Source: Candidatus Iainarchaeum sp.
Lineage (GTDB): Archaea; B1Sed10-29; WALL01
DNA: 24,175 bases
NCBI GenBank assembly: GCA_023129115.1
Contig: JAGMCR010000014.1
Coordinates: forward strand, 1 to 24,175
Direction: 5' to 3'
The notes beneath the pieces are model-generated. The model saw nothing but the letters and a program-made list of their open reading frames with translations. It made no database searches and was not told the DNA's origin. Below are positions 486-12,526 of the stretch, piece by piece. The position numbers and the translations under genes were made by a program. Position 1 is the stretch's first letter. Each line of letters begins with the position of its first letter.

Positions 486-1721
486 TTAGTGCAAGCGCCA
501 CAGCTTCTTCCGGTAATCTTTCCACGCCTGAGTCTTCTTTGCGGCGCTCCCCTCAAGAATGCGGTACTTCTTCCGCTTCAGGTGCGTGACCGGCTGCTTC
601 AGCAGGTCCTTGAGCAGCGCCTTCGCGGTCGCGTACTCGCGCCTCCTCTCCGTGACAATCCGGTTCCCCCGAACCGCTGCCTTCTTGTACTTCTTCAGGA
701 AGGCCTCGGCGTGCACGCGGTCGTACACCCTCGGCCCCCAGTGGTCGTTCACCGGCGGAAGCTCCCACACCTCGAGCTCGAGCAGGACCTGCGCCTTGCT
801 GCAGCAGTCTGTCCACGCCCGGCTGTCAATCACGCCGAACTCCTTTTCATGCAACTGCTTCACCAATTTTTTCTCGAGCCGCTGGAGCTGCGACCAGATT
901 ATTTCCTCGTTCTCTTCCCCGATTTTCCACTCGATGACCATGACGCGCCCCCGGCTTGGCAGTAGCGAGGTCTTTTCCGGCATCCCTTTCTTCAGGAACT
1001 CGCGCGACAGCAGAATGAACTCGCATAACTTCTGCTCGCTCACCGCGGCGGCAACATTCCTTTCGGGGTCCACTGGGTCGACCACGACCAGCGGCTCACG
1101 GAACTTTTTTTTGCCGTGGCCCGCAAGGTTGATGTACTCGCCGCTCTCCCAGCGGCTCGCCCTCTCGAGCACTTTGCGGAAAGTCCCGTACTTGAGCACA
1201 AGCAACTCACACAAGTACCCCGAGAAGCCGTGCGTCTGAACCTCTGCGCCGTACACCTCAATCCGCTTGGCGAAGTGCTTCAAAAGCCTCGCCTCATCCG
1301 GGCTTTTGAGGTTCGCCAGGATGTACTCGGTGTGAAGCGGCGACCTGTCCACCGCAGAAATGATTTTCTCGCCCTTCTTGATGTCGTAGCACGGGACGAC
1401 GTCGATGTCGTAGCCCCTGATGTTCATCTTGGTGTACGGGTGCTCGGCGTAGTGCGTGCCCGCCTTGCTGCCGAAGGCCTTCGCGACTTTCTTCCCGATA
1501 TCGAGGCCCTTCTTTTCCAGCATCTTCCGTGGCACTTTTTTGTCGAACAGGATGAAGATGTCCAGGTCCTTGTCGCCGCGGAGGCACGTGTTCTTGGCAA
1601 TCGACCCCACGAGCATGGCGTCGTATCCCATGCCGCGAATTTCCCCTATGATGCTCTCGGCGAGCGCAAGCTCGCTCTTCCGCTCCCGCGGTGTTGGCTT
1701 GAGCTCGCTTATCTTCTTCAT
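486..1721 (-). CDS. cca: Archaeal (class I) CCA-adding tRNA nucleotidyltransferase
   Basis: Motifs VGSIAKNT..GDKDLDIF, YAEHPY, SAVDRSPLH, GFSGYLCELL and DPVDPERNVAAA. Confidence 0.97.
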   Translation of the reverse strand: MKKISELKPTPRERKSELALAESIIGEIRGMGYDAMLVGSIAKNTCLRGDKDLDIFILFDKKVPRKMLEKKGLDIGKKVAKAFGSKAGTHYAEHPYTKMNIRGYDIDVVPCYDIKKGEKIISAVDRSPLHTEYILANLKSPDEARLLKHFAKRIEVYGAEVQTHGFSGYLCELLVLKYGTFRKVLERASRWESGEYINLAGHGKKKFREPLVVVDPVDPERNVAAAVSEQKLCEFILLSREFLKKGMPEKTSLLPSRGRVMVIEWKIGEENEEIIWSQLQRLEKKLVKQLHEKEFGVIDSRAWTDCCSKAQVLLELEVWELPPVNDHWGPRVYDRVHAEAFLKKYKKAAVRGNRIVTERRREYATAKALLKDLLKQPVTHLKRKKYRILEGSAAKKTQAWKDYRKKLWRLH

Positions 1722-3259
1722 CCGTAGCTCTTCCTTATCAAGCCCTTTTCCGCGAACTTTTCAATCGCGGCCTTCACGAGCACTTCCGAGAACCCAGTCT
1801 CGGTGACGTAGTCCTCGGCCTTGAACCCGCCACTCCTCCTCCGCAGCGCGTCCCACACTGCCTTCTCCAGCGGGTCCTTCGGCAGGTAGTTGTCGCTGAT
1901 GATAGTGTAAGTGCCGTCGAGCGTGTCCTTCTTAAGCATGCTTACGCCCTTCTTCATTCCCATTACCTGGTAGATGAAGTCCGTCTTGTACTGGAACAGC
2001 GCGAACACAGCCACGAACACAAGCGCGAACATCGCAATCAGCATGATGCCGGGGAGGCAGAACGGCCCAATGCAGAACAGGCCCTCCTGTATGCCCGCCG
2101 ACCAGGGGCACTCGTGCATCTCGCCGCGGCAGTTCGCGGGCTCGGGCTCGCGGTAGACCTGAGTGTACTCCGAAGACTTCCCGGCAGGGTCGTAAGTGAA
2201 CGCCGTCGTCCCCGCGTACGCCACCACCCACGCATAGTAATTGCCCTCCTTGTAGCCAACCCTGGCCTCGGCCGGCAGGCCCTGCCGCCTAGCCATCTCG
2301 CGGAACATCAGCGCCTTCTCGACGCTGTTCAGCCCCGTGCCCAGCCTTCCCACGACGTCCTCCAGGTCGACCTCAAGCGTCGCCAGCGTGGACTCGGACG
2401 TCGGCGTGTCCGCGATGGAGTCCATGGTCTGCTTGAACAGCTGCAGCGCGTCCATTCCCGTGGCGGTCTCGCCTATGGCCGGCCTCAGGGCGTCTGTCGC
2501 GCTCTCGCCAGAAATCTCGAACAAGGCATCGCTCTGCGTGTGCAGTATGTACTGGTTGCTGTACGGCGGGCTGTACGGGCTGTCCTTCAGAAGGTCCTCG
2601 TCGTTGACGTATCCCGGGCTGTACTTTATGACAATGGACTTCTTCTCGCCCTCCTCGAGCGTGACAGTCCATGCGAGCATGCGGACGAAGTTTTGCTTCA
2701 GGTTTATCTCCTGGGGCTGGTCGAACGTCGGCCGCCCCGTGGCGAAGGTAATCACCACGCCCTCCGCCCTCTCTTCCGCCAGTTGGGGGGACACCCACAG
2801 GTAGTCGGCGTTGGGGCTGCGCTTGTACGGCGCGTAAACATAATAGCTGCCCTTGATTGTGGGGAGCACCTCGACCTCGACGGTCAGCTGCTTGTCGCCG
2901 CTGTTCTCGAGGCTTATTACCTGCTCGACGTAGTCGTCGTTGACTTCCACTGACGCGGAGCCGAATATGTCTTCCGCGAAGTTTTCGGGGTAATTCACTA
3001 TGTAGGTGTTGGTCTTCCCGCCGACCGCGGTGCCTGTCACTTGCGGTATGCTGACGGGCACGGGCTGGCCCTTTGACTTTATCGTCGGGAACATTGGGAC
3101 CGTCAGCACGCCAGCTATGTCTAGCCGGTTGTTGGCTATGTTGACCTTTGCAGCTATGTTCGGCGACGAGAGCACAACGTCCCCACTCGCTGTTTCCACC
3201 ACGACGGTCAGCGCGGAAGCCATTGCGAGTATCATCAGCAGGCTAAAGAGTCTTTTCAT
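1718..3259 (-). CDS. Single-pass membrane protein with signal peptide, beta-rich ectodomain, degenerate transglutaminase-like domain and C-terminal winged helix
   Basis: N-terminal signal peptide. The segment KALMFREMARRQGLPAEARVG..YAW..YDP resembles a TGase core. One TM helix is followed by the wHTH-like tail LEKAVWDAL..SEVLVKAAIEKFAEKGLI. Confidence 0.7.
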   Translation of the reverse strand: MKRLFSLLMILAMASALTVVVETASGDVVLSSPNIAAKVNIANNRLDIAGVLTVPMFPTIKSKGQPVPVSIPQVTGTAVGGKTNTYIVNYPENFAEDIFGSASVEVNDDYVEQVISLENSGDKQLTVEVEVLPTIKGSYYVYAPYKRSPNADYLWVSPQLAEERAEGVVITFATGRPTFDQPQEINLKQNFVRMLAWTVTLEEGEKKSIVIKYSPGYVNDEDLLKDSPYSPPYSNQYILHTQSDALFEISGESATDALRPAIGETATGMDALQLFKQTMDSIADTPTSESTLATLEVDLEDVVGRLGTGLNSVEKALMFREMARRQGLPAEARVGYKEGNYYAWVVAYAGTTAFTYDPAGKSSEYTQVYREPEPANCRGEMHECPWSAGIQEGLFCIGPFCLPGIMLIAMFALVFVAVFALFQYKTDFIYQVMGMKKGVSMLKKDTLDGTYTIISDNYLPKDPLEKAVWDALRRRSGGFKAEDYVTETGFSEVLVKAAIEKFAEKGLIRKSYG

Positions 3260-3725
3260 GGATTACCTCGTACTTCGGCCCTTCCGGTGTCAAAATGCTC
3301 TTCATCAAGAGTACCCTGTCGACCCGCACCTCGATGCTTATTTTTTCCTTGAGCAGCTCGAACACGCTTTTGTCGGGCTTTCCCTTCACCCGCGCCAGCG
3401 TTACGTGCGGAGACAGCTCTCCTTCCCCTATAACTCTATGTATGTTTAAAAGGCTTTGCGAGGGCCCACAGCCCACCCAAACCACGCGGATATAATCTTT
3501 ATTTGGAAAAACCCCAATCTGGTCGAACACGATTGTGAACGCTTTCTCGCCAATCGACTCCAGCTTTTTTGTCCATTCCTCTGCATTGCCTTCGCCGATG
3601 AAGCGCATCGTCATGTGCAGGTTCTCTTTTTCCACAATCTTCAGCGGGCCCGTTAGCCTGCGCTGCAGCTCCACCAACTCGGCTTTTGCCTCTTCCGGCA
3701 GCGGTATCGCAATGAACAGCCGCAT
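3243..3725 (-). CDS. thpR: RNA 2',3'-cyclic phosphodiesterase (2H phosphoesterase, '2'-5' RNA ligase')
   Basis: MRLFIAI start, two HxT motifs (NLHMTMRFIG, PHVTLAR) and the C-terminal LMKSILTPEGPKY. Confidence 0.95.
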   Translation of the reverse strand: MRLFIAIPLPEEAKAELVELQRRLTGPLKIVEKENLHMTMRFIGEGNAEEWTKKLESIGEKAFTIVFDQIGVFPNKDYIRVVWVGCGPSQSLLNIHRVIGEGELSPHVTLARVKGKPDKSVFELLKEKISIEVRVDRVLLMKSILTPEGPKYEVIHEKTL

Positions 3726-3752: not shown

Positions 3753-4313
3753 TCAACTTATCGATTGCTCGCCGCCGCTGTTGCGTATCCGCACGTGCTT
3801 CGGCCCCTCGAGCGTTGACGCCACCGCCCTCAGCTCGTCAAACCCCTTGTCCGCGTAAAGCACGAACGTCCCTGTTATCTGCGCCGCCGCCTCCCTTGCA
3901 TCGCTTTCGTCACCGCTCCAGTCAAGCACGACCTCGTGCTGGACCGAAGAAGACTGCATTAGCTTTACACTCTCCCGAATTTGTTCAGACCCCTCGTAAA
4001 GCGGCGCGCCGATGGTTATGGACACGTAGTCCACCAGCCTCCTGTCCACGAGCTTCTTCAGCAGGCCGGGGTTCGTGCCGTCAGTGTTCACCCTCACCAG
4101 CTTGTTCTTGAGCTTCATCTTCTTCGCGACAATCGGGAGGTCGCCCTGCCTCTCGACCTCTCCCTCGAACACGACCGCGTTGGTGGTGAAGCTCTTCTGC
4201 AGCTCTGCATCTACTTCGCGCATGCTGCTCCTCCCTCTGCCGGCAACTACGACTACCGCTATTTTGCCGGGCCAGGCCTTCGTGTCTTGGCCCCGGTACT
4301 CTGCTACGTCCAT
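3753..4313 (-). CDS. NrdG-like radical-SAM-fold protein lacking CxxxCxxC (probable pseudo-activase)
   Basis: Aligns by eye with the neighbouring NrdG (WPGKIAVVV~YPDNIAAVV, LVRVNTDGTNP~LVKLDTNGLNP, LVDYVSI~LVDYVAM, VQHEV~RPHEF). It contains no Cys, and GGEP is changed to EGEV. Confidence 0.8.
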   Translation of the reverse strand: MDVAEYRGQDTKAWPGKIAVVVVAGRGRSSMREVDAELQKSFTTNAVVFEGEVERQGDLPIVAKKMKLKNKLVRVNTDGTNPGLLKKLVDRRLVDYVSITIGAPLYEGSEQIRESVKLMQSSSVQHEVVLDWSGDESDAREAAAQITGTFVLYADKGFDELRAVASTLEGPKHVRIRNSGGEQSIS

Positions 4314-4314
4314 C

Positions 4315-4524
4315 CTACCACTTTATTTCTTCGTAGCCCTTGACTATTGAGAACGTGGCGGCCACTGTGCCGATGAGGCCGAGCAGTGCGAACGCCTGGC
4401 CTATCTTCGTGCCGATGGTGACAAATCCAACAATCAGCAGGCAGAAGTAGGCGGGCAGGGTGAGCACGCCAATCTCGAACTCGTACTTGGTAAAGAGGCA
4501 CCGCCTCTTGTCCTTGCTTGCCAT
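4315..4524 (-). CDS. Small two-TM membrane protein of unknown function
   Basis: 69 aa with two hydrophobic segments. It ends 1 nt before the pseudo-nrdG start, and TATA-like TTTTATA lies about 24 nt upstream. Confidence 0.7.
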   Translation of the reverse strand: MASKDKRRCLFTKYEFEIGVLTLPAYFCLLIVGFVTIGTKIGQAFALLGLIGTVAATFSIVKGYEEIKW

Positions 4525-4547
4525 GCTGCACTAAAACGAATAAGGGG

Positions 4548-4586
4548 TATAAAAAAGGGGAGCCCCCGGTGGGCGCCGGGGGGCCC
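4548..4586 (-). terminator. GC hairpin plus U-tract after nrdG; the U-tract may double as TATA box for the next gene
   Basis: Minus strand reads GGGCCCCCCGG-CGCCCA-CCGGGGGCTCCCC-TTTTTTATA. Confidence 0.6.
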
Positions 4587-4617
4587 GAATGCATGGCTGG
4601 GTGGTCTCCTTGTAGTC

Positions 4618-5301
4618 TCAAATGCCGCGAATGCCAACGTTCTTCACTTTCTTCCGCGCGACTTCCGCGAGCTTTTCCAGTATAGCCGGCTCGTAGGCCT
4701 TCGAAAGAGGCCCGGCCTGCTTCACGGGCCTGTACTGCTGAATGTAATAGTTCTCCGCCCCCTCGACGAACTCGACAAGGGAGTCAAAGTCTTCCTCGGG
4801 AATGAACGCCGGCACGACCGTTGTCCTGAACTCGTGCGGCCTCCCCGACTCCTTGAGGATCTTTATGCTCTTCTCGATTTTCTTGATGTCCAAGTCCACG
4901 CCGGCCGCGTCCTTGTAGCGCCGCCTCGCCGCCTTCACGTCCATGGCAACGTAGTCCACGAGCGGCAGCAGCTCCTCAAGCGCTTCCGGGTTCAGGCCGT
5001 TCGTGTCGAGCTTCACGAGCATCCCGATTTCCTTTATCTTTTTGATGAACTCCGCCAAGTCGTACAGCGTCGGCTCTCCGCCGCTCAGCACGACGCCGTC
5101 GAGGAACTTTTTCCTGCGCTCCAGCTCGTTCAGGACCCACTCCGGCGTCAGCTTCTCGTACTTGTCCGGCGCCTTCACCAGGTCCTTGTTGTAGCAGAAC
5201 GGGCACGACATGTTGCAGCCGCCGAAGAACACTACCGCCGCTATGTTGTCGGGGTAGTCCACTAGCGACTGCGGCAGGAACCCGCGCATATTAAGGTCCA
5301 T
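4618..5301 (-). CDS. nrdG: Anaerobic ribonucleotide reductase activating enzyme (radical SAM)
   Basis: Motifs SLVDYP..GCNMSCPFCYN, SGGEPT, KLDTNG, YVAMDVK and EFRTT. Directly downstream of nrdD. Confidence 0.96.
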   Translation of the reverse strand: MDLNMRGFLPQSLVDYPDNIAAVVFFGGCNMSCPFCYNKDLVKAPDKYEKLTPEWVLNELERRKKFLDGVVLSGGEPTLYDLAEFIKKIKEIGMLVKLDTNGLNPEALEELLPLVDYVAMDVKAARRRYKDAAGVDLDIKKIEKSIKILKESGRPHEFRTTVVPAFIPEEDFDSLVEFVEGAENYYIQQYRPVKQAGPLSKAYEPAILEKLAEVARKKVKNVGIRGI

Positions 5302-5444
5302 CAGTTCACCGATACTTTTTCAGCTGCCTGGACAGCGTAGAGCTGGCGGTCCTTCCACTCTTCTTTCTTTCCTGCGTTCCACTGCTTGATTGGCCGGAAG
5401 TACCCGACCACCCTGCTGTAAACTTCAACTTCTTCATTGCACAT
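5301..5444 (-). CDS. nrdD: Stand-alone glycyl-radical domain of class III RNR (47 aa; not in ORF track)
   Basis: Manual translation MCNEEVEVYSRVVGYFRPIKQWNAGKKEEWKDRQLYAVQAAEKVSVN* carries the NrdD signature YSRVVGY. SD AGGTGA lies 6 nt upstream, and the stop overlaps the nrdG start (TGATG). Confidence 0.93.
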   Translation of the reverse strand: MCNEEVEVYSRVVGYFRPIKQWNAGKKEEWKDRQLYAVQAAEKVSVN

Positions 5445-5456
5445 TTTAATTCACCT

Positions 5457-7412
5457 TTAATTGTATGGGCACGTGTGGTGCTCTCCTGGAATGTAGCCGT
5501 GGGTGGGGCAAATCGTGAACGTCGGCGTCACCGAAAAGTACGGCAGCCGGTAGTTCTCCGCCACCCTCCGCACGAGCTTCTTCGTCGCCTCCACGCTCTC
5601 AATCCTCTCGCCGAGGTAGCAGTGAAGCACTGTCCCGCCCGTGTACTTGCGCTGCAGCTCGTCCTGGTGGTTCAGCACCTCGAAGAGGTCGTCCGTGTGG
5701 TTCGCCGGGAGCTGGGTCGAGTTCGTGTAGTACGGCGCGTCACGGCCCTGCGTGAAAATGTCGGGGAACTCTTTCTTGTCAATCCTCGCCAGCCGGTACG
5801 CCGTCCCCTCCGCCGGAGTCGCCTCGAGGTTATAGATATGCCCGGTCTCTTCCTGGAAGTCCGAAATCCTCTCGCGCATGTAGTCCATCACTTTCTCGGC
5901 GAACTTCTTCCCGCCCGCGGTCTCGATTCCCTCGCCGAGGAAGTTCATGCAGCTCTCGTGCATGCCGATGAGCCCGATTGTCGAAAAGTGGTGGTCCAAG
6001 TTGCCCAAGTACCTTTTTGTATAAGGCAAGAGCCCGCGCTCAATATTCTCCTGGACTTCCTTGCGCTTTACCTCGAGCGAGCCCTTCGCCAGGACCATGA
6101 GCTTGTTAAGGTTCTCGAAGTAAGCGTCCTCGTTCCGCGCGAGGTAGCCGAGCCGGGGCATGTTTATCGTCACAACCCCAACACTCCCCGTTGACTCGCC
6201 AGCGCCGAACAATCCCCCGGTCTTGTTCCGCAGCTCCCGCAGGTCCAATTGAAGCCGGCAGCACATCGAGCGCACGTCGCTCGGGTTCAGGTCGCTGTTG
6301 ATAAAGTTCTGGAAGTAGGGTATGCCATACTTCGCCGTCATCTGGAACAAGAGGTCCGCGTTCTCGCTCTTCCAGTCAAAGTCCTTTGTGATGTTGTAAG
6401 TTGGAATCGGGAAAGTGAATATCCTTCCCTCGGCGTCGCCCCCCATCATTATCTCGAGGAACGCCTTGTTGATGAGGTCCATCTCGTCCTGGTAGTCGCC
6501 GTAAGTCTCCTTCAACAGCTTCCCGCCGTAAATCACAGGCTTGTCCTTCATGTCATCGGGCACAATCCAGTCCAGCGTCACGTTCAGGAAAGGCGTCTGG
6601 TTCCCCCACCGCGACGTCTGGTTCGCGGAGTAGACGAACTCCTGCACGCCCTGCTTGATTTCGTCGTACGTCATCTTGTCCTTGTGCACCATCGGCGCGA
6701 GGTAAGTGTCCACGCTCGAAAACGCCTGCGCGCCAGCCCACTCGTTCTGGAGCGTGCCCATGAAGTTGACCATCTGCCCGAGCGCGGCGTCGAAGTGCTT
6801 CGCCGGCTTCGCCGACACCCTCCCGGTTACTCCGTTGAACCCCTCGGTCAGCAGCTGCGCGAGCGACCACCCCGCACAATAGCCACTAAGCGTCCCGTAA
6901 CTAAGGTCGTGGATGTGGAAGTCGCCCTCGCGGTGCGCCTTCCCCGCTTCAGTGGGATAAACATTGTTCAGAGTGTATTCCGCGACGACGGCGCCGCTTA
7001 TGTACGCCTGCAAGCCACTCAGTGAATAGCTAGCGTTGCTGTTCTCGTTGACGCGCCAGTCCTGCAGCCCGACGTATCCGTCGACCAGCTCGACAATGCT
7101 TTCGCCAAAGTTTTTTTCCGAACGGAACTTCGCGCGCTGCGCGCGGTAAAGGATGTACGCCTTCGCAGTCGAAGCGTACCCCTCCTCAATCAAAACTTTT
7201 TCCACGGTGTCCTGGATGTCCTCGATGGTCGGGACCTTGCCCGTGTACTTCTTCTCGATTTCCTGGACCACTTTGTCCGCGAGCTTTGCCGAGAGCGCGC
7301 GGTCCTTGCCGCCGATTGCCCTCGCTGCCTTGAAAATGGCGTCCGTAATCTTGGCTTTGTCAAAGTCTGCTGTACGGCCGTCCCGCTTGAGAACCTTGCT
7401 TATTTCAGCCAT
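5457..7412 (-). CDS. nrdD: Class III (anaerobic) ribonucleoside-triphosphate reductase, large fragment with N-terminal ATP-cone
   Basis: ATP-cone VLKRDGRTADFDKAKI, then HIHDL..GYCAGW, FTFPIPTYN, finger loop RSMCCRL, LEATPAEG and YYTNS. Ends in a partial Zn site CPTH..CPYN with no Gly-radical motif. Confidence 0.96.
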   Translation of the reverse strand: MAEISKVLKRDGRTADFDKAKITDAIFKAARAIGGKDRALSAKLADKVVQEIEKKYTGKVPTIEDIQDTVEKVLIEEGYASTAKAYILYRAQRAKFRSEKNFGESIVELVDGYVGLQDWRVNENSNASYSLSGLQAYISGAVVAEYTLNNVYPTEAGKAHREGDFHIHDLSYGTLSGYCAGWSLAQLLTEGFNGVTGRVSAKPAKHFDAALGQMVNFMGTLQNEWAGAQAFSSVDTYLAPMVHKDKMTYDEIKQGVQEFVYSANQTSRWGNQTPFLNVTLDWIVPDDMKDKPVIYGGKLLKETYGDYQDEMDLINKAFLEIMMGGDAEGRIFTFPIPTYNITKDFDWKSENADLLFQMTAKYGIPYFQNFINSDLNPSDVRSMCCRLQLDLRELRNKTGGLFGAGESTGSVGVVTINMPRLGYLARNEDAYFENLNKLMVLAKGSLEVKRKEVQENIERGLLPYTKRYLGNLDHHFSTIGLIGMHESCMNFLGEGIETAGGKKFAEKVMDYMRERISDFQEETGHIYNLEATPAEGTAYRLARIDKKEFPDIFTQGRDAPYYTNSTQLPANHTDDLFEVLNHQDELQRKYTGGTVLHCYLGERIESVEATKKLVRRVAENYRLPYFSVTPTFTICPTHGYIPGEHHTCPYN

Positions 7413-7457
7413 TTTCAATACCGTGGTTCATTTTGCAAATATTTTAGTGCAACAATA

Positions 7458-7533
7458 TTCGGATTTCGAAAGCTTTTCCGAGCAAAGTTGTTACTACTAT
7501 CTTATTAATAAAGATTCGTGTTAGGAGTTCGAA
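7458..7533. promoter_or_regulatory. nrdD promoter region with two TTCG-N5-CGAA-type palindromes flanking a TATA-like element
   Basis: TTCGGATTTCGAA at 7458-7470, CTTATTAATAAAG at 7501-7513 and GTTAGGAGTTCGAAC at 7520-7534. Confidence 0.55.
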
Positions 7534-7659
7534 CTAAAATCAGTCTATCCCCATACTTTCCAAACCATGTCTTATTGTACTGGGGTTAGAAGCTAATTTG
7601 CGTGGTTCTGTGCCGGGCACCCACAGAGATTAAATAGTTGGTCTGCCCAACTATAGCCC

Positions 7660-8172
7660 ATGTCTTTCAGGCCTTCCAAAGACGAGTATTACCTCGAGAT
7701 TGCGAAGTCAATCGGGCTCCGCTCGCCGTGCATGCGCAAGAAATTCGGCGCAATCATCGTGCGGCACGACACCGTGGTGTCCACGGGCTACAACGGCCCG
7801 CCGCGCGGCGGGGTGAACTGCTTTGACATTGGGTGCGTGCGGGACGAGCTGGACATGGAGCACTATGCTGCGTACGACGCGACGTGCCCCGCGGTGCACG
7901 CGGAAGAGAACTGCATTGTGAACGCGGCGCGGAACGGGACCAAAGTCCTCGGCGGCGTTTTGTATATACAGGGCGTCTCTCCAGAGGACAACTCGCTTGT
8001 GGAATCGAGGCCGTGCCACCGGTGCCGCCGCGCATTGATTAACGCGGGCGTCACCGAAGTAATCACCCGCGACACCGAGGGCCAAATCCTCCGCTACAAT
8101 GTCGGGGAGTGGACCAAGACCGATACCGAGACGTACATCAAGAAGTACAAAGAGGCCACTGCGGGGAAGTGA
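7660..8172 (+). CDS. dCMP deaminase (ComEB/cytidine deaminase family)
   Basis: RSPC..FGAIIV..STGYNG, VHAEENC and RPCHRC zinc motifs. Divergent from nrdD, with TATA-like ATTAAATA about 24 nt upstream (leaderless). Confidence 0.92.
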   Translation: MSFRPSKDEYYLEIAKSIGLRSPCMRKKFGAIIVRHDTVVSTGYNGPPRGGVNCFDIGCVRDELDMEHYAAYDATCPAVHAEENCIVNAARNGTKVLGGVLYIQGVSPEDNSLVESRPCHRCRRALINAGVTEVITRDTEGQILRYNVGEWTKTDTETYIKKYKEATAGK

Positions 8173-8174
8173 GC

Positions 8175-8546
8175 ATGCCTTTGCGTGACTTGCCTGGCGC
8201 GATTGCCGGCTTTCTTTTTGGGAAGAAGGAGAAGCCGAAGGACTTGGGCAAGCTCGGGCCTTACATGGACAAGGAGCTTGTGGTTGACGTCTACAACTTT
8301 TACCAGACCGTGAAGCTAGAGGGCGTGCTGGTCGGAAGGATTGCGAGGGGCGTGGTGCGCGTTGGCACCCCAATATTAATCATGCCCATATGCAAAAAAG
8401 CCGTAGTGAAGTACATCGAAATCAAGGGCGTGCGGCAGGGCGCGGCTGTCGAGGGAGAGTCAATCGGAATCGGCGTGGACGGCGTTGGCACAGAAGACAT
8501 CGACCCCTCCACCGTAGTAATCAACGCAGTGGCTCAACAGCAGTGA
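8175..8546 (+). CDS. Stand-alone EF-Tu/EF-1A domain II-like beta-barrel protein
   Basis: VLVGRIARGVVRVGTPILIMP..AVVKYIEI....AVEGESIGIGVDGV..DI resembles domain II of translational GTPases. No G domain. ATG lies 2 nt after the deaminase stop. Confidence 0.75.
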   Translation: MPLRDLPGAIAGFLFGKKEKPKDLGKLGPYMDKELVVDVYNFYQTVKLEGVLVGRIARGVVRVGTPILIMPICKKAVVKYIEIKGVRQGAAVEGESIGIGVDGVGTEDIDPSTVVINAVAQQQ

Positions 8547-8556
8547 AATCATTTCC

Positions 8557-8668
8557 CATCACACTCTCGGCTCTTGCGGAATGAGAGTGGGATGTGAGGG
8601 TGCGGGGGAGAGGAGAATCGCACCCTCACCGGCACTCCAAAGGAACGCCGTTGCCCTATTGCTGGCAA
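8557..8668 (-). ncRNA. Candidate structured RNA / 3' UTR element of four abutting hairpins
   Basis: Stems 8557-8568/8583-8594 (11 of 12 bp), 8594-8604/8619-8629 (11 of 11), 8630-8638/8642-8650 (9 bp with two G-U pairs, minus strand only) and 8651-8655/8664-8668. Confidence 0.45.
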
Positions 8669-8676
8669 GGCAGTAT

Positions 8677-10653
8677 TTAAGCCTTACGCTTGAGCGTGAA
8701 TGAGAGCATCCCTTTCTTCATCAGTGCGTACGCCTTTCCGCTGGGGTCCTTGTAGTCCGTTACATCGAGCTTGGCCGCGCCGCGGCAGTACTGCTGGAGG
8801 CGGGCCTCCGTGTCAATCCACTTCTCCGTGTCCTGCAGCACATGCGTGAACCCGCTCGCCGGGTACACTTCCTTCACGCCGAACCGCTTCTCGTTCATCT
8901 TCGAGAACCGCTTGCCCGCCTTCTTCGCGTCCAGGCAGCCGAACAGCATATAGCTCCCCTCCGCGTTGAAGCCGTCCAGCTTCGTCTGCGCGTAAGCAAG
9001 CACGCGCTCCGCGAACTTCAGCGCACCAGCGTCCTTGTTGATTTCCTCCCCGGTGTAGTCGTGCACCGCGTTGTCAAGCCCAATGATGTTGACAATGCTC
9101 GGCGCATTCTCAAGCGAATAATACTCCTCGCCACCGAACTCCTGCGTCAGGAACGGCAAAATCTTGTCCTTGTGCAGGCGCTTCTCAATGACCTTCCTCT
9201 TCTCCTGCGCCACGCTCCGCGCCAGCTCAAGCGCGCGGTCGAACTCGCTGAAGAACTCCGCGTCGTCCTTCGCAGACAAAGCAATCCGCGGCAGGTTAAT
9301 CGACACTTCCTGCAAGACACCGGTCCGCAGCGTCGAAAACCACTTGCCCTGGCGCGGGCGGATTATGTGGTTCGGCGACACCATGCTCAGGTTTGCCTCG
9401 CGGTCGCGCAAATTAAGGATGGTCACGTCGTTCTTCTCGACAAACTTCGCCAGCGCCTTCTCCGTCGACACCGGAATCCCGCCGTCACGCACCTTAATCA
9501 CGACCTTCGGCGTCGGGAACAATTTGCCCTTGAAGTCGCCGTCGGCCATCGCGTTCAGGAATAGGTTCATCACGCGCACGCTCTCGCGCTCGTAGTCGAG
9601 GTAAGTGTCCTGGCCGGTCACGCCCTTCGGCAGGATAGCCTTTTCCTTCTTCAAAAACGGCGGCGTCTCCAGCTCGAAGTTCAGCGTGGACTGCGCGAGG
9701 CTCCCGCCGCGCACGGCATAAATCTGGTTCAGCTCATACAAAAACGTCTGCACCAATTGCTTGACTTCCTTGTCCGACAAGTTGATTGTGTACGGGGCCA
9801 AGAGAGTGTTGAAGAAGTCGAACGACAAGCCGCCGCTAAGGTGCGTCTCGCCCGACAAAATCACGCGGATGGCGTGCGAAATCGCGACCTCGGCGTGCCG
9901 CGCCGGCCCCGCAATGCTCGTGTTCTCGCCAAGCCCGTCAGTCGTCACGCCGTTCTTGAGGAACCACCGCAAGTCGTTCTGCAGGCTAACCGGCCGCGTC
10001 GCGAAGTACGGCAAGTCGTGAATGTGAATCGCGCTCGTCAAGTGCGCCTTGGCGACATCGTCCGGCAGCATCCGCACCAATGCGTACTCGCCCGCGACCG
10101 CGTCGCCGAACTTCTTGTGCAGCGCCTCGGGGTTGGGGGTCGCCTCGAGCGACTGGATGATTTGCGTCACGTCATAAATCGGCAGGCCCAGCCGCGTGTA
10201 CTCTGTCTTTGCCTGCATGTACCTGCGCTCGAGCAGCTTCGAGTTCACCATCTCGCGAATCAGCGGAGCAGAAACATAGCGCAGCTCGAGCCTCCGGATG
10301 TCGCTCTCGACCTCGCCAGCGATTTCCTCGCACGTGTTCTTCGCCAGCGTCGTCTCCTTCAGCAGTGACTCGATTATGCACTGCTTGTTGAACGACTCGA
10401 GGACGCCGTCGCTCGTCCGGACGTAGACCTTGTGGTAGTTCTCGAACTCGCGGGCCATGCCCTCGTCCCGCTTCTGGAGCTCCTGGACAATCAAGTCGTT
10501 CAGCTCCTCCTCGGTCAGGGGGTCCGTCAATTTGGGCTGGAGGGCGAGGGCTACCTCGGTAGCGAGCCAGAAGCTGATGCCCGCCCGGCTGCACTTGTCC
10601 TCAATGGTTTTTGGGTTGAACTTCGAACCCGGGCAAGCCTTTTGGGTTGCCAT
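8677..10653 (-). CDS. NrdD-like protein with tandem ATP-cones lacking catalytic cysteines and glycyl-radical domain (probable pseudo-enzyme)
   Basis: ATP-cone VRTSDG..FNK..SAPLIREMVN, then YTRLGLPIYDV, HIHDLPYFATRPVSLQND, GPARH, FPTP and LRTG..SINLPRIA. No Cys in the finger-loop region and no Zn site or RxxGY at the C terminus. The start at 10653 is inferred from TATA position; the ORF track gives 10692. Confidence 0.85.
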   Translation of the reverse strand: MATQKACPGSKFNPKTIEDKCSRAGISFWLATEVALALQPKLTDPLTEEELNDLIVQELQKRDEGMAREFENYHKVYVRTSDGVLESFNKQCIIESLLKETTLAKNTCEEIAGEVESDIRRLELRYVSAPLIREMVNSKLLERRYMQAKTEYTRLGLPIYDVTQIIQSLEATPNPEALHKKFGDAVAGEYALVRMLPDDVAKAHLTSAIHIHDLPYFATRPVSLQNDLRWFLKNGVTTDGLGENTSIAGPARHAEVAISHAIRVILSGETHLSGGLSFDFFNTLLAPYTINLSDKEVKQLVQTFLYELNQIYAVRGGSLAQSTLNFELETPPFLKKEKAILPKGVTGQDTYLDYERESVRVMNLFLNAMADGDFKGKLFPTPKVVIKVRDGGIPVSTEKALAKFVEKNDVTILNLRDREANLSMVSPNHIIRPRQGKWFSTLRTGVLQEVSINLPRIALSAKDDAEFFSEFDRALELARSVAQEKRKVIEKRLHKDKILPFLTQEFGGEEYYSLENAPSIVNIIGLDNAVHDYTGEEINKDAGALKFAERVLAYAQTKLDGFNAEGSYMLFGCLDAKKAGKRFSKMNEKRFGVKEVYPASGFTHVLQDTEKWIDTEARLQQYCRGAAKLDVTDYKDPSGKAYALMKKGMLSFTLKRKA

Positions 10654-10660
10654 CACATCA

Positions 10661-10715
10661 TTTTTTATATCCCCATGTATATAATCCTTCATATGGCGGT
10701 TCGCTTTCCGAACCG
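10661..10715. promoter_or_regulatory. Divergent promoter with perfect palindrome CGGTTCG-CTTTC-CGAACCG
   Basis: TATA-like TTTTATAT (+, 10663-10670) and ATTATATA (-, 10678-10685). The 7-bp-arm inverted repeat is at 10697-10715. Confidence 0.65.
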
Positions 10716-10724
10716 GGTGTTTCC

Positions 10725-11168
10725 ATGGAGATAGACGAGATTGACGCCAGGATACTGGAGCTCCTTTCCGAGAACTCCAGGATGAGCTATTCCGACATAG
10801 CGAGGCACTTCGGCTTCTCGGACGTCGCGATTCGGAAGCGCGTGGACAAGCTCACAGAGAAAGGGATTATCAAGAAGTTCACGACCGCGGTGGACCAGAA
10901 AAAGCTGGGCAAGAACGTGACGGCGTTTCTGTTCTTCAACACGCGCTCGGACAAGACACAGGAAATCGCGGACCAGCTGCTCGCGCTGGACGGCATCGAG
11001 GACGTCTATATCGCTCTCGGCGTGTACGACATCATCGCCAAGGTGCACTGCGCCGACGTCGTTGCGCTGAAGTTGCTCACCGAGCAAAAGCTCAACGACA
11101 TCAACGGCATCATTGAGGTCCGGCCCTCGATTGTATTCACTGAGGTCTCGAAGAATGAACCAGCTTAG
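10725..11168 (+). CDS. Lrp/AsnC family transcriptional regulator
   Basis: HTH IDEIDARILELLSENSRMSYSDIA..SDVAIRKRVDKL..KGIIKKF and a RAM domain with GVYDII. Confidence 0.95.
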   Translation: MEIDEIDARILELLSENSRMSYSDIARHFGFSDVAIRKRVDKLTEKGIIKKFTTAVDQKKLGKNVTAFLFFNTRSDKTQEIADQLLALDGIEDVYIALGVYDIIAKVHCADVVALKLLTEQKLNDINGIIEVRPSIVFTEVSKNEPA

Positions 11169-11997
11169 GGGCTTCGCCGCCATCATTGTTTCTGCCATAG
11201 CGTTCGGCGTAAGCACTTCCGTCGTAAAGGACGCGATGAACCTCGGGCTCGAGCCGCTCGCGTTCAGCGTCGCGTCAATGCTGTTCGTCGTCGCCTTCAT
11301 GCTCCCGTACTTCTTCACGCTGAAGCAAGAGAAGCTCACGAGGCGTGACTGGCGCGACTTCGCTGTGCTCGGCGTTGTCGCGTCTGGCGTTGCGCACTTT
11401 GCTTACACGGTCGCGCTGGACTACACTTCCGCAATCAACTTTTCTTTCCTCACGCAGACCGGCGCGCTGTTCACCGTCGTGTTCGCGTTTTTCATGCTCG
11501 GCGAGCGCGTGAAGAAGTGGCACCTCGCCGCAGGCGCGGTCATGCTCGCCGGCGCGTTCCTCGTTAGCACTGGCGGCGAGTCGCTCTCGTTGGGGGCAGG
11601 CGACTTGATTGTCATCGGGGGTTCGCTGCTGCTGGGCTTCTCGAACGCGTTCGCGAAGCGGCTCATGAAGAGGCACGCGCCGGGCGCGGTCGCGTTCTGG
11701 CGGTCGGTCTTCGGCCTCGCGTCGCTCGCGCTTGTGGCGCTTGTGCTTCGGCTTGACGTGCTGGCGGTGGTTGGGTGGCACGCCGCGCTGAACGGGCTCA
11801 TGATTGCGCTCATCTTTGTGTTCATCTACATCGCGTTCGACGAGCTTGGCGCGTCGCTTGGCGCGATGCTGATGCTGGTCGCGCCGGTGTGCGCGGTTGC
11901 GATGGCGATGCTCTTTCTGGGCGAGACGCTGCTGCTGGTGCAGGCGGCCGGGGGCATACTCATTTTATTGGGCGCAGTGGTAATCTATCGGTCGTAG
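11155..11997 (+). CDS. DMT/EamA family transporter
   Basis: About 10 TM helices in two repeats (AFFMLGERV and MLFLGETL), with the GDL motif. Confidence 0.92.
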   Translation: MNQLRGFAAIIVSAIAFGVSTSVVKDAMNLGLEPLAFSVASMLFVVAFMLPYFFTLKQEKLTRRDWRDFAVLGVVASGVAHFAYTVALDYTSAINFSFLTQTGALFTVVFAFFMLGERVKKWHLAAGAVMLAGAFLVSTGGESLSLGAGDLIVIGGSLLLGFSNAFAKRLMKRHAPGAVAFWRSVFGLASLALVALVLRLDVLAVVGWHAALNGLMIALIFVFIYIAFDELGASLGAMLMLVAPVCAVAMAMLFLGETLLLVQAAGGILILLGAVVIYRS

Positions 11998-11998
11998 C

Positions 11999-12526
11999 AT
12001 GGAAGTCGAGTTCAAGGCAAAAGCCCCGCGCGGGATTGAGAAGAAGCTCGCAGCCGCTGGCGCGAAGGGGCTCGGCACGGTGGTGAACAAAGACACTTAT
12101 TACGACAGGCCGGGCGAGCCCTTGCGCCGGAAGGGCGCGGTGGTCCGCGTGCGCTCCCAGGGCAAGAAAACCATCGTAACCTACAAGTCTCCGTCAAAGT
12201 CCAGGTCCACCAAGGCAATGAGGGAAATCGAAATCCGCGCGACGCCGGCAATTGAGGTATTGCTCCGCGGCCTCGGCTACAAAGTGACTCTCGAGAAGGA
12301 AGTCAGGCGCACCAGCTATTCCCTCAATGGCGTCACGGTCTGCCTGGACACGGTCAAGGGCCTCGGCAGCTGGGTCGAGTTCGAGGTATTCGGGACCGCG
12401 GCAGGGGCGAGGAAGAAAATCCTTGCCGTGGCCAGCAAGCTCGGCATTCCAGCTAAAGAGCTCACGCCCAAGTCGTATCCCCAGCTGATTAGGGAAAAGC
12501 TAAAAAGCAAGAAAAAACAGAAGTAG
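11999..12526 (+). CDS. CYTH / class IV adenylate cyclase-like triphosphate tunnel metalloenzyme
   Basis: EVEFK (ExExK), DTYY, VRVR, TYK, REIE, LDTVKGLGSWVEFE and KSY. Confidence 0.92.
   Translation: MEVEFKAKAPRGIEKKLAAAGAKGLGTVVNKDTYYDRPGEPLRRKGAVVRVRSQGKKTIVTYKSPSKSRSTKAMREIEIRATPAIEVLLRGLGYKVTLEKEVRRTSYSLNGVTVCLDTVKGLGSWVEFEVFGTAAGARKKILAVASKLGIPAKELTPKSYPQLIREKLKSKKKQK

Follow-up and report, generated by a model that had tools for sequence, protein, structure and literature searches.

The 24,175-nucleotide stretch analysed here (the window: contig JAGMCR010000014.1 of assembly GCA_023129115.1, from Candidatus Iainarchaeum sp.) carries a gene cluster built around an anaerobic, class III ribonucleotide reductase (RNR), in which the enzyme is made in two chains and is accompanied by a paralogue of its large subunit NrdD without catalytic residues (psiNrdD), a cysteine-free paralogue of its activase NrdG (psiNrdG) and a regulator of the Lrp/AsnC family. 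We document the anatomy of this cluster, the losses in the two paralogues, the selection acting on them, the distribution of the parts among relatives and a box motif in front of RNR genes. Our preferred reading, for and against which we see the case as about evenly balanced, is a three-layer cluster for deoxynucleotide supply, in which the two-piece RNR would be the enzyme, the Lrp protein would regulate RNR genes, psiNrdD would act as a sensor of nucleoside and deoxynucleoside triphosphates ((d)NTPs) and psiNrdG would be a former activase kept for a non-catalytic role.

The source assembly, of a DPANN archaeon of the Diapherotrites type, comprises 1.25 Mb in 19 contigs and is 88.6% complete. 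The stretch is present in three DNA runs, all cold-seep metagenomes of one study, of which one is possibly the source sample; no RNA run carrying it was listed. Genomes are coded G000 for the window's own assembly, G001 and G002 for its congeners, G003 for a neighbouring genus, G018 and G022 for class-level relatives and G037 for a distant one. Genes were assigned by a Pfam domain search on the open reading frames (ORFs) of the window, and every feature that a sequence-only reading had listed (NrdD, glycyl-radical peptide, NrdG, psiNrdG, dCMP deaminase, psiNrdD and Lrp) was recovered where it had been placed. Gene neighbourhoods were compared over 20 related loci, and the adjacency of the Lrp gene and psiNrdD was counted over the window and 14 further loci. 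Ratios of nonsynonymous to synonymous substitution rates (dN/dS) are given for G000 against G002, the remaining genome pairs being saturated at synonymous sites.

The first layer, the reductase, is encoded by the following features, with a dCMP deaminase gene divergent from nrdD.
5457 to 7418, minus strand: NrdD large chain, 653 residues (Pfam NRDD, E 2.2e-176, model positions 1-525; ATP-cone, E 4.2e-25)
5445 to 5459, minus strand: split junction, with TAA, an AGGTGA Shine-Dalgarno site, a short spacer and then ATG
5301 to 5444, minus strand: glycyl-radical subunit (MCNEEVEVYSRVVGYF...), 47 residues (Pfam NRDD, positions 527-562, E 1.7e-10)
4618 to 5301, minus strand: NrdG activase (Pfam Radical_SAM, E 1.3e-25; CxxxCxxC at residue 29)
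7660 to 8172, plus strand: dCMP deaminase (Pfam dCMP_cyt_deam_1, E 4.6e-18)

Large chain and peptide together cover the entire barrel model of the NRDD family (PF13597). The large chain aligns with the NrdD of Thermotoga maritima (4COI, E 3.3e-34), its finger loop SMCCRL falling on ASCCRL and its bottom-cysteine stretch SGYCAGW on PYCFAYT, while the glycyl-radical motif YSRVVGYF, of the RVxGY type, is carried by the separate 47-residue ORF, whose stop codon overlaps the nrdG ATG. The break between the two chains sits within the second CPxC of the zinc site, so that the large chain ends C-x2-H...C-P-Y and the peptide begins M-C, the latter thus holding the fourth zinc ligand as well as the radical glycine motif; the corresponding stretch of unsplit relatives reads ...CPVCGERTEVYSRVVGYF. 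By these sequence features, NrdD, the peptide and NrdG form a working class III RNR, for which radical formation and nucleotide reduction are predicted. In the proposed first layer the NrdD body would contribute the cone, the barrel and both catalytic cysteines and the 47-residue subunit the radical glycine; this separately translated subunit would complete a Cys3His zinc site shared between the chains, and NrdG would activate the enzyme. There is a single gene for the peptide in G000, whereas the protein database holds 10 stand-alone homologues of 47-74 residues. The dCMP deaminase gene is also found in the cluster of G001, G002, G006, G008 and G009.

The junction reads ...CPYN-TAA-AGGTGA-ATTAAA-ATG-TGC..., with two in-frame stops, the second of them the TGA inside the Shine-Dalgarno site. 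We considered read-through or recoding of the stop codon at this place and rejected it, because in each of the three congeneric genomes (G000, G001, G002) the junction holds two or three stops of different kinds together with a Shine-Dalgarno site and an ATG. The split is thereby kept in three of three genomes of the genus, with AGGAGG or AGGTGA as the ribosome-binding site in the congeners, and over positions 5238-5479 the same letters are found in another sample of the study, on a contig of run X3 (record 17). Across the archaeal order, 8 of the 12 functional-type nrdD genes found are split and 4 are unsplit. The break lies after the zinc ribbon in G004 (contig C22), G008, G011 and G018, between the two CxxC pairs in G022 and G026, and before a glycyl ORF with an extra cysteine-rich domain in G003 and G005; since the break falls at differing places in NrdD, at least three independent fissions are indicated. 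The nrdD gene on contig C30 of G011 (locus L053, 487-2700) has a second interruption in its body (451 and 217 residues) besides the glycyl split, possibly through a sequencing error or because the gene is broken.

Further along the minus strand lies the second NrdD-like gene.
8677 to 10653, minus strand (ORF to 10692): psiNrdD, 658 residues (Pfam NRDD, positions 7-470 of 562, E 5.6e-62, plus an ATP-cone)

Its start is likely the ATG at 10653, as in its homologues, rather than position 10692. The protein consists of a helical N-terminal domain, an ATP-cone of the 'VRTS' type and a class III RNR barrel, and it shares 24% identity with the co-resident NrdD (pairwise comparison, E 7e-33). The sequence-only reading had described it as lacking catalytic residues, and this is borne out for both catalytic cysteines, the zinc ribbon and the RxxGY motif. 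In an alignment of 105 homologues the psiNrdD clade has serine at the bottom-cysteine position (HIHDLPYFATRPVSLQNDL), a finger loop without cysteine, and neither TPAE nor the zinc ribbon nor RxxGY, whereas the functional archaeal NrdDs of the same table have all catalytic features. The finger loop of psiNrdD itself is LSMVSPNHI. Zinc ribbon and glycyl domain are absent throughout the family members P0001-P0029 and the other members of the clade, no glycyl ORF was found downstream of psiNrdD, and the sole cysteine invariant among 29 family members is C34, in the helical N-terminal domain. What is retained is the fold: an AlphaFold2 model has a pLDDT of 85.7 and matches the NrdD of Prevotella copri in Foldseek (8P2C, E 1.7e-25). 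The cone, 'VRTS...SAPLIREMVN...TRLGLP', is of the same type as that of functional archaeal NrdDs, and the HIHDLPYFATRP stretch in the N-terminal half of the barrel is common to psiNrdD and live NrdDs.

The psiNrdD clade is monophyletic (23 rows, SH-aLRT 100) and ancient within the order, where psiNrdD is present in 13 of 13 genomes, and it also occurs in the larger part of the class; searched with the protein, 36 of 41 relatives gave matches, live NrdDs counted in. Its reading frames are intact across order and class, with a stop in one of the 12 closest matches, and its dN/dS is 0.097, against 0.096 for NrdD, so that psiNrdD is under purifying selection. Three genomes, G006 (92% complete), G010 (89%) and G012 (61%), have psiNrdD together with a class II RNR, and no functional-type NrdD was found in them. 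This distribution bears on the idea that psiNrdD is a non-catalytic subunit that forms a hetero-oligomer with live NrdD and tunes its activity or specificity, as dead subunits of certain class I RNRs do. Such a role would suit the retained cone and N-terminal barrel half, including the stretch shared with live NrdDs, and in G018 and G022 psiNrdD lies directly upstream of nrdD, the glycyl ORF and nrdG on the same strand. We nevertheless consider it unlikely, given that the co-resident NrdD is so distant in sequence and sits in another clade, and that psiNrdD is kept where class II RNR is the only reductase detected. The sequence-only reading had offered both hetero-oligomer regulation and sequestering of the radical peptide as possible roles, and both are weakened by the persistence of psiNrdD where no NrdD or glycyl peptide was found, as well as beside an unsplit NrdD.

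The activase paralogue lies at the far end of the cluster, with the following neighbours.
4315 to 4524, minus strand: TM69, a small hydrophobic protein of 69 residues directly upstream of the NrdG2/psiNrdG gene (no Pfam match)
3753 to 4313, minus strand: psiNrdG, 186 residues (BLASTP to NrdG residues 61-157, E 1e-7; no Pfam match)
3243 to 3725, minus strand: LigT-like 2H phosphoesterase, last gene of the cluster (Pfam LigT_PEase, E 5e-21)

That psiNrdG is a cysteine-free relative of NrdG, as had been noticed from the letters, is upheld by the absence of any cysteine and by the BLASTP match. The CxxxCxxC stretch is gone through a deletion of about 20 residues, and FEGEVE stands in place of SGGEPT, with loss of the GGEP motif that binds S-adenosylmethionine. 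In its AlphaFold2 model (pLDDT 93.1), psiNrdG is confidently predicted to keep an activase-like partial barrel fold; the top Foldseek matches are PFL-activating enzyme and QueE, with TM scores of 0.65-0.68 and an E-value of just 1.2e-3. Among the 18 NrdG-like proteins of the compared loci, 14 keep CxxxCxxC. The Fe-S motif is missing from the three copies of the window's genus, which have the deletion of about 20 residues, and from the G003 copy, in which the motif is degenerate. These four group together in the tree (support 86) inside a clade that we call NrdG2 (support 92), the remaining members of which have the motif intact. NrdG2 genes are preceded by the TM69 gene and followed by the LigT gene, and psiNrdD lies shortly before them in G004, G007, G008, G010 and G011, with a gap of 4 nucleotides in the last two and in G007. 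Because of its NrdG2-type position and clade, psiNrdG looks like the old activase of the locus, whose Fe-S cluster was lost once a second nrdD-Gly-nrdG set was in place upstream of it. In the model it would be a former activase kept for a non-catalytic, probably binding, role.

TM69 has homologues at the same position in G001-G006 and a dN/dS of 0.073. The LigT-like gene adjoins the NrdG2 or psiNrdG gene in 11 of the 20 related loci, a conserved pairing of an RNR activase with an RNA-end enzyme.

psiNrdG, too, is under purifying selection (dN/dS 0.165, against 0.140 for NrdG), and its 14 database relatives (57-100% identity) are all intact, with 0-1 cysteines and CxxxCxxC in none of the 14. 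The two ratios that the sequence-only reading had asked for are therefore far from those of decay and like those of the live paralogues, and the frames of both genes proved intact in relatives. The view that both dead genes are decaying relics without function has the loss of every catalytic residue in its favour, and DPANN genomes are rich in degenerate genes. We give it next to no credence, since it is already contradicted by the selection data, with dN/dS of 0.10 and 0.17 equal to those of the live paralogues; the frames intact across order and class, the 51 columns invariant over 29 psiNrdD sequences and the 14 intact psiNrdG relatives also speak against it. The same strong conservation of the barrel could be taken to mean that psiNrdD has a new catalytic or carrier function without glycyl radical or cysteine, perhaps exerted with NrdG2 on a nucleotide-like substrate, and an intact NrdG2 is indeed retained beside psiNrdD even where live NrdD was not detected. 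This we regard as very unlikely: a thiyl radical is impossible in psiNrdD because the barrel has no conserved cysteine, the partner lost its Fe-S cluster in the window's genus while psiNrdD stayed equally constrained, and we cannot name a candidate reaction.

The third part of the cluster, for which the second layer of the model is proposed, comprises a regulator gene and the palindromes that we call nrd boxes.
10725 to 11168, plus strand: Lrp/AsnC-family regulator, 147 residues (HTH_AsnC, PF13404, E 1.1e-12; AsnC_trans_reg, PF01037, E 3.4e-10)
7458 to 7470, no strand: nrd box 1 (TTCGGATTTCGAA), 40-46 bp upstream of the nrdD start (score 19.7, the best of the assembly)
7521 to 7533, no strand: nrd box 2 (TTAGGAGTTCGAA), 63 bp from box 1, in the divergent intergenic region of nrdD and dCMP deaminase
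10698 to 10714, no strand: weaker nrd box, GGTTCG-CTTTC-CGAACC, between the TATA boxes and the Lrp ATG

The linked Lrp regulator of the sequence-only reading has both Pfam domains of its family, and its adjacency to psiNrdD is conserved: the two genes are divergent in the window and in 13 of the 14 other loci, the fourteenth stopping at a contig edge. Their intergenic region measures about 70 bp and contains two back-to-back TATA boxes at 10660-10686. The residues of the Lrp recognition helix are invariant across 15 orthologues. In the distant G037, the Lrp gene adjoins a functional NrdD gene of 759 residues.

The palindrome was spotted by eye and with a regular expression; an inverted-repeat finder run on the promoter regions with seed 6 returned nothing. 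Its core, TTCG-N5-CGAA, occurs at 7458, 7521 and 10700, so that the related palindromes claimed for both promoter regions are there, and they are conserved in relatives. The 13-bp form is TTCGGA-N-TCCGAA and the matrix consensus TTCGGAATCCGAA. Upstream of nrdD, a TTCG-N5-CGAA pair 63 bp apart is found in G000, G001 and G002. At the Lrp promoter, both arms of the G001 palindrome have changed together, to GGTTAG...CTAACC, and related palindromes occupy this position in G003, G004, G005 and G009. Boxes also lie upstream of the TM69-nrdG2 genes of G004 and of other nrdD genes, and the class II RNR gene of G007 is preceded by one that scores 19.7. Exact 63-bp pairs occur at 8 loci (the window and 7 others), 4 of which have extra boxes at 31-32 bp.

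Fifteen boxes served to build a matrix, which was then tested on 18 loci outside the training set (116.8 kb). It found 11 sites scoring at least 16, where 50 shuffles averaged 0.72 sites and never gave more than 4, and in 10 of these 11 cases an nrdD or class II RNR gene begins no more than about 260 bp downstream. In a scan of the whole of G000, the best site and the sole paired sites are those at nrdD; C1:69504 and C19:83649 also reach a score of 16. With a tightened pattern, the 1.25 Mb assembly gives 7 matches; three of them are the window sites, and the four inside ORFs (C4:76850, C8:967, C12:80075 and C13:69938) were taken as chance. GTTCGAAC alone was discarded as a signal, with 1 match in the window against 0.78 expected, and significance holds just for the 13-bp form with comparative data. 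Two other sites of the assembly resemble these elements. One, at G000:C14:44706, is a weak box-like sequence (TTCGGAAACCAAA) that scores 14.2 and precedes an ftsZ-like gene by about 90 bp; in the other case, a second Lrp paralogue (34% identical) at G000:C16:36920 has a TTAG-N5-CTAA palindrome of its own about 64 bp upstream of its start.

We infer from synteny and motif shape that the Lrp protein is the candidate binder of the nrd boxes. The second layer would then consist of Lrp, regulating the transcription of RNR genes across this archaeal order and sitting on 13-bp palindromes in helical phase, 31-32 or 63 bp apart, at the promoters of nrdD, of nrdG2, of one class II RNR gene and at the bidirectional Lrp/psiNrdD promoter.

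The placing of both dead genes within this regulon, together with their adjacency in the five genomes where psiNrdD is followed by an NrdG2-type gene, could also suggest that psiNrdD and psiNrdG or NrdG2 act as a pair that handles the free glycyl-radical peptide, whether to hold, protect or exchange it, in the manner of GrcA, the spare part for pyruvate formate-lyase. psiNrdG would retain the activase fold that normally docks the glycyl loop, and both proteins are under purifying selection. Such a pairing is nonetheless decidedly unlikely in our view. psiNrdD has no C-terminal region to seat a glycyl domain, psiNrdD and NrdG2 also occur beside an unsplit NrdD (G007, G009) and in genomes without a detected one (G006, G010), G000 has one glycyl-peptide gene alone, and Fe-S loss is confined to 4 of the 18 NrdG-like proteins. 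The co-occurrence that had been expected of the two pseudo-enzymes is likewise not what the genomes present: psiNrdD spans the whole order, whereas the NrdG without an Fe-S motif is confined to the window's genus and one neighbouring genus, and these very different ages and ranges disfavour an obligate, co-evolved pair.

In the preferred three-layer reading, psiNrdD would be an old nrdD copy, deprived of radical chemistry, in which the ATP-cone and the nucleotide-binding barrel half survive, and it would sense the (d)NTP pool and feed into Lrp control, analogous to the way in which NrdR couples a cone to DNA binding. A role of psiNrdD in control or dNTP sensing fits the retained ATP-cone, the conserved pairing with Lrp and a sister clade with a winged helix; of the control module proposed from the sequence alone, this part finds support and the obligate pair of pseudo-enzymes does not. 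The sister clade belongs to Bathyarchaeia (P0092, P0093, P0102 and P0111) and joins an N-terminal ArsR/DUF7347 winged helix to the same 'VRTS' cone and a dead NrdD barrel that retains the zinc ribbon. A search in Bathyarchaeia gave 154 matches, of which 80 loci were kept (L059-L138). In none of these 80 does the gene have nrdG or nrdD as a neighbour, and in all 8 that are annotated it stands tail-to-tail with pyrB, which encodes aspartate carbamoyltransferase. This clade makes it more plausible that dead NrdDs can take on regulatory roles in nucleotide metabolism. pyrI lies beyond pyrB in at least 3 of the 8 annotated loci. The fusion clade is one of several dead NrdD clades besides psiNrdD among the archaeal sequences of the 105-homologue alignment. 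Two more clades of NrdD homologues lack the glycine motif and the finger-loop cysteine (P0044, P0049, P0065, P0071, P0072 and P0098; P0074 and P0082), and because both branch inside functional archaeal NrdD groups, catalysis has been lost several times.

A bolder form of the sensor proposal, which we entertain tentatively and would sooner doubt than accept, is a two-part analogue of NrdR. Here the dead NrdD would read ATP/dATP or the dNTP pool through its retained cone and effector sites and signal to Lrp on helically phased nrd boxes, thereby controlling all class III and class II RNR genes of this lineage; the Bathyarchaeia proteins would be a direct fusion of the same dead enzyme with a winged helix, and the cysteine-less NrdG would be a second adaptor.

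Several observations weigh against the sensor and Lrp layers. No recognisable DNA-binding domain was found in psiNrdD, and its N-terminal domain showed no similarity to the Bathyarchaeia winged helix in hhalign (probability 0.3). The Bathyarchaeia clade is the nearest to psiNrdD in the tree with a weak support of 67. Three further Lrp paralogues are encoded in the genome, and the choice of this Lrp as binder, over a different factor or psiNrdD itself, rests on synteny and motif shape. The arrangement in G037 makes the pairing of Lrp with nrdD older than the death of psiNrdD, so that the synteny may be plain inheritance and not cooperation. Three nrdD genes (G004:C15, G005:C37 and G018:C38) have no box scoring at least 11 in the DNA fetched. 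The model also leaves unexplained why G006 (L032, L041) and G010 (L036) have an NrdG2 with intact CxxxCxxC beside psiNrdD and neither a live NrdD nor a glycyl peptide detected; either nrdD lies in the missing 8-11% of these assemblies, or NrdG2 has another substrate.

Whether the helical N-terminal domain of psiNrdD is a winged helix was probed by other comparisons as well, none of which gave a clue to its role from outside the family. Compared with the family's own cone, it gave an hhalign probability of 0.4; in the ESM Atlas it hit 'ATP cone' clusters at 0.87, below the line of 0.9, and this serves as a lead only; and phmmer against 1.84 billion representatives returned just 12 proteins, all of the same family or fragments. 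A complex prediction for psiNrdD and Lrp scored 0.25 against a mark of 0.32 and is counted neither for nor against an interaction.

The surroundings of the cluster hold further features. Between the dCMP deaminase gene and the 3' end of psiNrdD, an ORF of 145 residues (8109-8546, plus strand) has a sub-threshold match to EF-Tu domain 2 (27.6 bits, cut-off 30.3), and behind it, at 8554-8629, lie two inverted repeats with arms of 15 and 11 nucleotides, terminator-like between convergent genes. A 513-residue ORF with a hydrophobic, signal-like N-terminus (1718-3259, minus strand) adjoins the cluster on the other side. Near the Lrp gene is a gene for a CYTH (triphosphate tunnel) protein (11999-12526, plus strand), likewise in 7 related loci, and between the two stands an EamA transporter gene (11113-11997, plus strand) in the window and in G002.

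Control of the supply of DNA building blocks in archaea is largely unknown, as NrdR is mainly bacterial, and the cluster provides a set of parts with which it can be tested: an operator motif with 63-bp phasing before nrdD in most relatives examined, before nrdG2 and before a class II RNR gene in one case, a candidate regulator that is conserved, and a conserved dead enzyme that is predicted still to bind nucleotides. It also indicates that the radical domain of NrdD has repeatedly and independently been split off as a small subunit, and that a reductase and a radical-SAM activase can both persist for long as selected, non-catalytic proteins. If the sensor reading were true, psiNrdD would clearly exemplify an enzyme that has come to regulate the pathway to which it once belonged.

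Compared with single-chain class III RNRs (T. maritima 4COI/4U3E, P. copri 8P23, Streptococcus thermophilus 9D3X and phage T4 1H78), the window enzyme has the cone, the barrel, the bottom cysteine, the RVVGY motif and the adjacent activase in common, but it comes in two chains with the zinc site divided between them. With the T. maritima NrdD it shares the 'CC' finger loop. psiNrdD has the same fold as these enzymes, but lacks both cysteines, TPAE, the zinc site and the glycyl domain. As a small separate protein with the radical glycine loop of a glycyl-radical enzyme, the peptide resembles GrcA/YfiD. GrcA, however, rescues a full-length enzyme cleaved by oxygen, whereas the window peptide, present in a single copy in the genome, would be an obligate subunit, since the NrdD body has no glycyl domain of its own. 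Phage nrdD 'split genes' are for the most part ascribed to introns, inteins or homing endonucleases, and one of them, in Aeromonas phage phiAS4, has a cause described as unknown (PMC3653736). Full-text searches and passages of PMC3019208, PMC4390871, PMC3653736 and PMC11528403 yielded no account of dead NrdD paralogues, a cysteine-less NrdG, an RNR regulon under an archaeal Lrp or the splitting of the glycyl domain from NrdD. The regulon motif and the Lrp link are new, as are the history of the cysteine-less activase, the survival of psiNrdD in genomes in which class II RNR was the only one found, and the Bathyarchaeia fusion clade. The latter, for which no characterisation was found in the literature searched, shares the dead barrel and 'VRTS' cone with psiNrdD and differs from it in the winged helix, the zinc ribbon, the adjacency to pyrB and the distance from nrd genes.

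Lrp/AsnC proteins typically bind a palindrome of about 13 bp with an A/T centre, in regular spacing and with a site in their own promoter, and their usual effectors are amino acids. The window Lrp has both domains of the archaeal family, and the boxes match these habits, being 13-bp palindromes with an A/T centre and regular spacing, one of them in the promoter of Lrp itself; a search of the Lrp/AsnC literature found no paper naming RNR genes as targets. NrdR boxes, too, are helically phased in their spacing. As with NrdR, an ATP-cone protein is genetically tied to RNR genes, and palindromic boxes precede RNR operons belonging to different classes; according to the abstract of PMC12176259, RNR operons are preceded by two 'NrdR boxes' to which NrdR binds. 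The nrd box is unrelated in sequence to the NrdR box, and neither protein belongs to the NrdR family, psiNrdD having 658 residues and no zinc ribbon and Lrp having no cone. NrdR is a small protein of zinc ribbon and cone that binds DNA itself, whereas here the cone is carried by a 658-residue dead enzyme and the candidate DNA binder, Lrp, is a separate protein.

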